IMG/VR virus record: IMGVR_UViG_3300031673_000012
Location: 21,419 to 85,418 of that record
Reading direction: 5' to 3' (one strand)
Length of the DNA: 64,000 nucleotides
Source: a virus
Of the stretch, positions 37,335 to 38,144 are shown in pieces. The notes under the pieces are model-generated. The model had not been told where the DNA came from and made no database searches. It saw only the letters and a program-made list of their open reading frames with translations. The first letter of the stretch is position 1; each line of letters begins with the position of its first letter. The position numbers and the translations under genes were made by a program.

Positions 37335-38144
37335 TTAAATTAATACTGGTAAATCTTTTAAAATATCTGCAATCTTATCATCATTTATCATCCCGTCATA
37401 AAGATATGGTCCCTCATCCTGCTGGTCCGGCTCGTCTCCGCTTTCATCATAAGTATGACTACCATGAGAAGAAATCTCAAAACAATAGACAGTACCTTCA
37501 AATATCTGCCTGTCAATAAGTTTATCCGGCCCCTCAATAGTACAAGCCTGAGAGAATCCCAGTCTCCTTAATTCTCTGGCAGCTAAATCATCCCATTGCC
37601 TGTAAGTAAGTCCCTTCTTCTTAGTTTCTATCAATGCGTAATGATAGGCTCCATTTGCCCTACCATTAAATACTGCATCTGCAGCCGTTTCGTAATCCCG
37701 GCAAGCTGACATTGCTATATAGTTAAGCCCTTCAGTCGGAGACAATACCTTATTCACTATCTCTTTATGTATAGGGAATTGTGGGTTATGATAAACCCTT
37801 GCCTGCAATAAATTATCAGGTTGTATGGCCCGTGTATTTGATTCTGAGAAACAAGTATCCATGATAAACAAAAGAAGATCACCGGGCTTCATTCTCGAAA
37901 CAACCGCTTTTAATTCAGACAGGAATCTGGCACAAGTTGATTGGGAGTCTTTGAATTTCCTAAATGTGTAATAAGGCCAGATTTTAAGAACCGCCTTTTC
38001 AAAGTCAACCTGGTCATTGGGAGGCCCGGCAAGATCATTCGCCGTTCCGGGATAATTGCCACAGACAATACTAACAACTGTGTTATCGGTAAAGTCAGGC
38101 AATTCCACTACATCATTATTCCCAAACCATTTCTTAAAGCACAT
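37335..38144 (-). CDS. Caspase-family (C14, metacaspase-like) protease with permuted motif order
   Basis: NYPG...DLAGPPND, PGDLLLFIMDTCFS, MSACRDYETAAD, NGAYHYAL, C-terminal SSHG...DESGDEPDQQDE...INDDKI. Confidence 0.8.
   Translation of the reverse strand: MCFKKWFGNNDVVELPDFTDNTVVSIVCGNYPGTANDLAGPPNDQVDFEKAVLKIWPYYTFRKFKDSQSTCARFLSELKAVVSRMKPGDLLLFIMDTCFSESNTRAIQPDNLLQARVYHNPQFPIHKEIVNKVLSPTEGLNYIAMSACRDYETAADAVFNGRANGAYHYALIETKKKGLTYRQWDDLAARELRRLGFSQACTIEGPDKLIDRQIFEGTVYCFEISSHGSHTYDESGDEPDQQDEGPYLYDGMINDDKIADILKDLPVLI

Follow-up and report, generated by a model that had tools for sequence, protein, structure and literature searches.

A phage Peptidase C14 protein with its catalytic histidine block placed behind the catalytic cysteine

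The locus and its caspase-like gene

We analysed a stretch of 64,000 nucleotides of viral DNA (the window), positions 21,419 to 85,418 of the IMG/VR record IMGVR_UViG_3300031673_000012, in which one gene encodes a caspase-like protease with an unusual order of its catalytic segments. The record of 85,418 bp is complete by CheckV, and the window is its final 64 kb. It holds terminase, portal, major head, sheath and tape-measure genes, each of them encoded on the minus strand. The gene of interest lies at 37335..38144 (-) and encodes P0001, a protein of 269 amino acids (aa) plus stop, identified by its open reading frame (ORF), Pfam, phmmer and BLASTP as a Peptidase_C14 (caspase/metacaspase-like) protease of rewired chain order. 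Its start codon is located two bases past the stop of a 69-aa upstream ORF, with a purine-rich ribosome-binding site of the GGGA type. P0001 has no signal peptide and no prodomain. It matches Pfam PF00656 (Peptidase_C14) with 28.6 bits (cut-off 21.4, E 1.4e-6), and the match falls into two stretches. No match to P0001 was found among the NCBIfam, PADLOC or PHROG models, and megablast of the 16 kb around the gene returned no match in 50,697 phage records.

The layout of the chain was derived from alignment and from an AlphaFold2 (AF2) model, supplemented by BLASTP and phmmer for the conserved parts. Residues 1-87 (37884..38144, here and below on the minus strand) carry a conserved MCFKK tail ahead of strand 1, helix 1, strand 2 and helix 2; they are collinear with relatives of normal order in alignment, AF2 and BLASTP, and include the invariant residues D37 and D44 within the motif NDLAGPPND. 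Residues 88-100 (37845..37883), GDLLLFIMDTCFS, form a hybrid strand (predicted at 90-96) with the invariant D96 and the catalytic Cys98, whose codon is at 37851-37853. The first half of this strand is aligned to the start of strand 3 of the normal relatives and the second half to the end of their strand 4. A variable loop follows at residues 101-139 (37728..37844), which corresponds to the inter-subunit linker region of caspases and is poorly predicted, with a predicted local distance difference test score (pLDDT) below 50 at residues 100-108 and 130-136.

The p10-like part at residues 140-215 (37500..37727; phmmer, alignment, AF2 and BLASTP) comprises MSACRDYETAADA, strand 5, a hairpin, helices 4 and 5, and strand 6. 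Its end, LIDRQIF, is aligned with the point at which the normal-order relatives naturally terminate. At residues 144-156, MSACRDYETAADA exhibits the pattern SxCxDxxTxAD that characterises the p10-like part of metacaspases and orthocaspases (C14B), and phmmer aligns this region to residues 269-333 of AtMC9 and 273-306 of Yca1. The chain ends with residues 216-269 (37338..37499), EGTVYCFEISSHG...DDKIADILKDLPVLI, which contain strand 3 (TVYCFEI), the SSHG motif with the catalytic His227 (codon 37464-37466), the acidic hairpin DESGDEPDQQDE and helix 3 (DDKIADILKDL). This last block was characterised by the same methods as the p10-like part and by its substitution rates (see below). The motif positions of an initial annotation, made from the letters alone, thereby stand; it had placed the His block at about 37338-37496.

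Relocation of the His block

In Peptidase C14 and clan CD at large (caspases, metacaspases, legumain, gingipain, separase and others), the catalytic residues are described as His behind strand 3 and Cys behind strand 4, with His first along the chain, while P0001 has Cys98 ahead of His227. Sequence comparisons return its parts out of order, with statistically significant matches. Against the PDB entry of GSU0716 (3bij), phmmer aligns residues 212-262 of P0001 to the His segment at 69-119, and residues 140-179 to 200-235. Against AtMC9, residues 25-55 align to 36-66, residues 209-266 to 99-158, and residues 143-203 to 269-333. The clearest picture is given by BLASTP against P0100, the closest relative of normal order. 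A first high-scoring segment pair aligns residues 1-216 to 1-274 of P0100 with a gap of 51 residues between L92 and F93, and a second aligns residues 216-266 to 99-149 of P0100 (49% identity, E 5e-14), precisely the residues skipped by the first.

By these alignments, a block of 51 residues with strand 3, the catalytic His, the acidic hairpin and helix 3, which normally resides between helix 2 and strand 4, is located after the normal C-terminus. The order in P0001 is thus strand 1, helix 1, strand 2, helix 2, strand 4 with Cys98, linker, the p10-like part up to strand 6, strand 3 with His227, acidic hairpin and helix 3, and the placement of the His block is what makes C98 precede H227. In a circular permutation, the N- and C-terminal parts would be exchanged as wholes. 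Here, residues 1-92 and 93-216 are collinear with P0100 and only the segment 99-149 has moved. Since the N-terminus is in its usual place and only an internal block has changed position, the event is the relocation of a segment rather than a circular permutation, as the initial annotation had proposed. Its expectation of out-of-order C14 homology likewise held in the phmmer and BLASTP pieces.

Homologues and selection

A word-indexed search found 85 homologues and an exhaustive search 751 at E values up to 0.001; 80 of 148 metagenome matches were taken in. In the list from the exhaustive search, full-length matches in a single stretch are proteins with the order of P0001, and matches in three stretches are proteins of normal order. 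When motif order was counted in 232 proteins, 72 had the order of P0001 (rewired in the following), 137 the normal order, and 22 remained unclassified, these being fragments or motif variants. The single mixed case, P0200, was considered as an intermediate with two His blocks and rejected, as it is a normal-order protein with a chance AAHG. Duplication intermediates with two His blocks are absent among the 232 proteins, where the 'longer' length class was not searched. With the ORFs of the surrounding loci added, 117 out of 285 distinct full-length sequences are rewired.

Residues C98, H227, G228, S225, D37, D44, D96, E238, D240, E244, D255 and D256 are unchanged in 50 of 50 rewired members with 35-86% identity. 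The ratio of nonsynonymous to synonymous substitution rates (dN/dS) against the copies in loci L006, L009 and L012 (about 85-88% identity) amounts to 0.083-0.096 over the whole gene and to 0.009-0.075 over codons 216-269; pairs that are more distant are saturated at synonymous sites. That both catalytic residues are kept under selection had been suspected at the outset. The invariance of C98, H227, G228, D44 and D96 supports this, as do the low dN/dS values in the gene and in the moved block.

Among 185,579 species genomes, close rewired copies occur on only two contigs of metagenome-assembled genomes (MAGs). The ESM Atlas contains the sequence of P0001 but no model of it; the nearest clusters there consist of viral proteins labelled 'caspase domain'. 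A 6.85-kb contig assigned to a Bacteroidales MAG has at its end a fragment that shares 89% identity with residues 1-106 (L112 4001-4315), and a rewired copy with a fused extension (see below) lies on a contig of an Anaerolineales MAG. As hints, both are too weak for a host to be named. With regard to curated models, the normal-order P0100 weakly matches PADLOC 'caspase' and NCBIfam caspase_w_EACC1, whereas P0001 matches neither. The rewired chain order explains why such models overlook these proteins while a normal-order cousin is recognised.

Structure prediction

The AF2 model of P0001 was computed from a 50-sequence alignment and reached a pLDDT of 79 and a predicted template modelling score (pTM) of 0.80. 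Residues 211-230 are among the most confident, in blocks at pLDDT 97 and 86. Predicted strands are found at 22-27, 60-65, 90-96, 142-146, 202-204 and 219-225, and helices at 44-55, 71-84, 166-174, 181-194 and 255-262; a hairpin follows the strand at 142-146 and another is formed by 227-232 and 242-248. As a control, the model of P0100 (pLDDT 87, pTM 0.82) exhibits the same elements in textbook order.

In Foldseek and VIA-align comparisons, metacaspases rank at the top, followed by GSU0716, caspases, legumain and MALT1. VIA-align superposes the model on AtMC4 (6w8t_A) with Z 17.1 over 184 residues at a root-mean-square deviation (rmsd) of 3.5, on AtMC9 (8a53_A) with Z 16.1, and on caspase-3 and -7 with Z 13-14. 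The predicted model thus contains a superposable six-stranded sheet of the caspase type. The catalytic residues are predicted in their usual structural context, in which His follows strand 3 and Cys follows strand 4: H227 comes after the strand 219-225 and C98 after the strand 90-96. The aligned part is always limited to residues 18-217 in both programs. The control aligns to AtMC9 8a53_A over 232 residues (Z 28.0). P0001 falls short of this by 48 residues, about as many as the moved block contains; sequential aligners are unable to place that block. No entry of the same topology was found in PDB and BFVD, where the best BFVD matches are metacaspases of giant viruses with a TM of about 0.46.

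P0001 would probably fold into one domain, with the C-terminal strand 219-225 inserted between strands 1 and 4 and the usual dyad restored. Such a rewiring seems topologically easy: strand 6 is antiparallel, so that the normal C-terminus and the start of strand 3 come to lie on the same side of the sheet, and a linker of 14 residues (205-218) is available between them. This argument is drawn from the caspase topology in a structural review of clan CD (PMC4357240).

Catalytic pocket

The S1 pocket of TbMCA2 is formed by Cys92, Asp95, Ser156 and Asp211, and metacaspases prefer Arg/Lys (PMC4357240). Mapped by motif alignment only, three of these four residues are kept in P0001, namely as D44, S225 and D96, which may form a metacaspase-type pocket for Arg/Lys. 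Position 41 (38022-38024), the equivalent of Cys92 of TbMCA2, is Pro in at least 90% of the rewired members and Cys in at least 90% of the normal-order relatives of the MC type; this change in the pocket accompanies the rewiring. By analogy with metacaspases, Ca2+ could be bound in the conserved acidic loop that follows His, with E238, D240, E244, D255 and D256 as putative ligands.

Origin of the rewired family

An N-terminus of the form MC(F/W)KK occurs in 93 out of 117 rewired sequences and in 35 out of 158 of normal order. In P0001 it comprises residues 1-5 (MCFKK, 38130-38144 (-)), i.e., Met-Cys, an aromatic and two basic residues, and is near-invariant. AF2 predicts this tail as a short helix in P0100 and as disordered in P0001. 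It could serve as a membrane-binding tail, as a pseudo-substrate (Lys-Lys) or as a Cys switch.

For a tree of 92 rows and 202 shared columns, both His blocks were taken out. A phage clade of 55 rewired and 20 normal-order rows separates from 17 bacterial-type caspases with a support of 93 in the Shimodaira-Hasegawa-like approximate likelihood ratio test. In this tree, the rewired forms lie within a clade of phage caspases of normal order. The approximately unbiased test does not reject a single rewired clade, and hence one origin (p 0.54), and the tree constrained in this way is slightly better than the free one. With respect to the mechanism, GDLLL (residues 88-92) and GTVYC (residues 217-221) both align to residues 100-104 of P0100. 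A half-strand at both junctions fits a partial duplication followed by a deletion, and we infer such an origin inside the clade of MC(F/W)KK phage caspases.

Gene neighbourhood

The ORF directly downstream, at 36478..37323 (-), encodes 281 aa. By its sequence features, the product combines a holin-like membrane part of four helices with a linker rich in Lys/Arg, an internal signal peptide and a barrel-like part, the last of which ends in Phe. In relatives, these parts are split into two genes directly after the caspase. The basic linker is a plausible site for an Arg/Lys protease. PHROGs contain no match for this membrane protein, nor for the product of a 590-aa neighbouring gene. The latter, also downstream, was considered as the counterpart of a large gene in the same position in locus L001, and was rejected since the two are unrelated.

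Upstream of the caspase gene lie two small ORFs, one of 69 aa (38147..38356 (-)), which is the one that ends ahead of the caspase start, and one of 82 aa with hydrophobic helices (38316..38564 (-)). Beyond these, three large genes at 38581-45402 (-) were characterised by their ORFs and profile matches. Their products are a beta-helix protein of 1586 aa whose start resembles a signal peptide, a Laminin_G_3 protein, and a protein that is fibre-like at its C-terminus. The genes are situated between the head genes and the caspase module.

For comparison, 109 loci were grouped by motif order into 71 rewired, 29 normal and 9 unclassified ones, and same-strand ORFs within 2.5 kb were counted. Where at least 1 kb of downstream sequence is present, a gene for a barrel-like protein occurs within this distance in 43 of 46 rewired and in 13 of 23 normal-order loci. 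The usual gene between caspase and barrel encodes a protein of about 75 aa that has two membrane helices, an N-terminal tail rich in Lys/Arg and a loop with the conserved sequence GVITPEQ, and such a two-helix ORF lies just downstream in 53 of 75 loci. The window has, in its place, the four-helix membrane part fused to the barrel.

Some rewired caspases of 335-339 aa carry a C-terminal extension. It is homologous to the two-helix holin-like protein of about 75 aa, which means that caspase and holin-like protein are sometimes one chain. Fused forms were located at L036 150-1169, L039 1149-2159, L043 3577-4584, L044 4998-6005 and L111 772-1833, and comprise also P0037 and P0039-P0050. The Met of the holin-like protein itself is kept inside the fusion, so that two products per gene are conceivable, similar to a holin/antiholin pair.

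Wall hydrolases accompany the caspase in a number of relatives. Peptidase_M15_4 lies beside it in L001 and L003 with scores above the cut-off. Further families next to the caspase are GH108 with PG_binding_3 and DUF5675, above their cut-offs, as well as M15_3 and Amidase_2, just below theirs. DUF5675 (81 bits; L009 29-460 and L086 3390-3893) occupies the slot just upstream of the caspase that elsewhere holds M15 or GH108 endolysins, which suggests a wall hydrolase or another lysis factor. In the genome under study, the endolysin candidate is a 246-aa ORF at 54137..54877 (-) with an Amidase_2 match of 36.8 bits (cut-off 26) at window positions 54422-54805 (G000 75840-76223). It adjoins the terminase gene and is the sole wall hydrolase found in this genome among the five families tried. 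Peptidase_M15_4 and M15_3 were not found there. The searches for DUF5675 and GH108 were blank as well, but their controls were likewise silent and these blanks are without weight.

Judged from gene order and sequence features, this tailed phage and its relatives share a lysis-type module to which the caspase constantly belongs, in the order variable endolysin, caspase, holin-like membrane protein and barrel-like protein with a signal peptide. Endolysin and holin types are exchanged around a constant caspase, as expected of a lysis cassette.

Functional interpretation and alternatives

As the best overall explanation, with a probability of roughly 0.7, we consider the gene to be genuine and under selection, and its product a caspase/metacaspase (Peptidase C14, clan CD) whose permutation is not circular and for which a role in host lysis is proposed. 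Its components are not equally firm. A genuine and conserved rewiring of the caspase fold is highly probable, and proteolytic activity with both dyad residues supplied by the same chain is quite probable, while for the role in lysis we see about even chances. Among the roles that the initial annotation had offered (lysis, maturation of exported fibres, counter-defence), lysis is the one favoured by the gene context, and for the other two the results speak neither in support nor for exclusion. P0001 would then be an Arg/Lys-directed cysteine protease that folds in cis and is made late in the cytoplasm. It might cooperate with the holin-like protein or have it as a target, or it might attack envelope proteins of the host following a breach of the membrane, and would thereby constitute a proteolytic step of lysis.

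Several observations weigh against this explanation or parts of it. Sequential aligners never align the C-terminal block, and the model of P0001 superposes worse on metacaspases than the normal-order control (rmsd 3.5 vs 2.7). The equivalent of Cys92 of TbMCA2 is Pro41 in the rewired family. As P0001 has no signal peptide, an action on the envelope would need the membrane to be breached first. The only endolysin candidate of this genome is about 16 kb away from the module with the holin-like protein and the caspase, so that lysis genes are found in two separate places of this phage. Among loci with sufficient flank, an M15 endolysin neighbours the caspase in only 8 of 24 that are rewired and in 1 of 18 of normal order. 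The locus counts, moreover, include near-duplicate contigs (e.g., L006-L008, L101-L103, and L079 = L094). With regard to a single origin, the free tree needs three changes of gene order, although well-supported branches force only one. P0133 (265 aa) is rewired, with an N-terminus of the bacterial type that lacks the MC motif and a very long branch. This makes more than one origin possible, and P0133 may represent an independent second relocation of the same block.

Among the competing explanations, a role outside lysis survives best, although we consider it rather improbable. The caspase would then be an enzyme of counter-defence or host takeover, or a processor of the neighbouring exported fibre proteins, and would merely travel with lysis genes. 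Bacterial caspase-like proteases do work in defence systems, and the weak matches of P0100 to the PADLOC and NCBIfam caspase models fit in here, but P0001 is without any PADLOC match. In the window, the gene comes shortly after three fibre/adhesin genes and the endolysin is unlinked. The linkage across loci, however, is to holin-like and barrel genes (the 43 of 46 loci given above) and not to fibres, whose types vary by locus, and some relatives carry caspase and holin-like protein as a gene fusion.

Completion of the dyad in trans is somewhat less likely still. The His block of one chain would fill the empty slot of another, and activity of the resulting domain-swapped dimer would depend on dimerisation or on concentration at the membrane. 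In favour of this, the moved block is tied to strand 6 by the 14-residue linker alone, caspases are activated by dimerisation along strand 6 (PMC4357240), and a fusion to a holin-like protein that would oligomerise would gather the chains. The AF2 prediction, however, places the block confidently in a monomer (pTM 0.80), and metacaspases are active monomers (PMC4357240).

That P0001 is a catalytically dead scaffold, which merely binds the holin-like or a host protein, appears very unlikely. Pseudo-orthocaspases and pseudo-metacaspases are known (PMC6426788, PMC3220528), and the Pro in the S1 pocket could be read in this way. The known pseudo-variants, however, replace His and Cys, which are both invariant here in 50 of 50 members together with the Asp residues of the pocket, and the moved block has the lowest dN/dS of the gene. 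Finally, an assembly or gene-calling artefact (a chimeric contig or two merged ORFs), conceivable for a virus record derived from a metagenome and counted by the initial annotation among the possible refutations of its claim, has a negligible probability, as 117 distinct same-order sequences with about 28-88% identity on independent contigs from three collections exclude misassembly, and the reading frame is open and under purifying selection over both junctions.

For the lysis protease favoured here, a more specific scheme can be sketched, which we regard as doubtful at present. The rewired caspase, held at the membrane by the two-helix holin-like protein or fused to it, would time or complete lysis by proteolysis. 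It might clip the Lys/Arg-rich cytoplasmic tail of the holin-like protein or the fusion linker, and in this way convert an inhibited form into an active hole-former. Alternatively, Ca2+ entry at the breach of the membrane could switch the caspase on, which would then cut tethers of the host envelope. The detachable C-terminal His block could itself be the switch. If true, proteolytic timing would be a new kind of lysis control, exerted by the first natural clan CD peptidase that is encoded Cys-before-His.

Comparison with known systems

The normal-order MC(F/W)KK phage caspases, e.g., P0100 and P0053, are uncharacterised metagenomic proteins and share with P0001 the N-terminal motif, the domains, and the catalytic and pocket residues. 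They also reside in the same module with the two-helix protein of about 75 aa and the barrel-like protein. They differ in having His before Cys, in ending at the position of P0001 residue 215, and in carrying Cys instead of Pro at the position of Cys92 of TbMCA2. A parallel in gene arrangement exists in the bacterial gasdermins, pore formers that are activated by caspase-like proteases, where a caspase-fold protease is encoded beside a membrane-permeabilising protein. Those systems, however, serve host defence, and they have a different pore protein and a protease of normal order.

The best matches of P0001 in sequence and fold are type I metacaspases, orthocaspases and GSU0716 (3bij, 4f6o, 4af8; AtMC9 8a53, AtMC4 6w8t). 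Acidic S1 residues, the SGHG and DxC motifs, an acidic loop after His and the p10-like SxCxDxxTxAD are common to all of them, but, unlike in P0001, strand 3 with His comes before strand 4 with Cys (PMC4357240). In the same review, all families of clan CD have their His on L3 and their Cys on L4, and permutation is not mentioned.

Natural reordering of segments has been described for the type III metacaspases of phytoplankton, in which the whole p10 lies N-terminal to an intact p20 and a possible circular permutation is discussed (Choi and Berges 2013, PMC3734836). There, His still precedes Cys. P0001 starts with strand 1 of p20 and has the p10-like part between Cys and His; its p20 is split and the middle block moved to the C-terminus. 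Engineered caspase-3 and -6 with swapped subunits (cited in PMC3734836) as well as cpCasp2 (PMC7760212) demonstrate that the caspase fold is active despite a changed chain order, but these variants are artificial. They are true circular permutants with the break at the p20/p10 boundary, and retain the usual order of the dyad.

In the literature searched, as far as the texts were accessible, no permuted C14 or clan CD peptidase is described besides the type III metacaspases, and no phage caspase in a lysis cassette. Genes named 'metacaspase-1' appear in a virome preprint (10.64898/2026.01.21.700432), as annotation only. Compared with these systems, the family of P0001 is a large, selected natural family with the opposite order of the dyad, made by moving an internal core strand to the C-terminus. 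Such a rare non-circular permutation provides a test case for a fold in which the central strand is supplied last. The fixed place of the gene beside holin-like and barrel-like genes, together with occasional fusion to the holin-like protein, suggests that uncultured phages lyse hosts of the Gram-negative type with the help of a proteolytic step that has so far escaped study.

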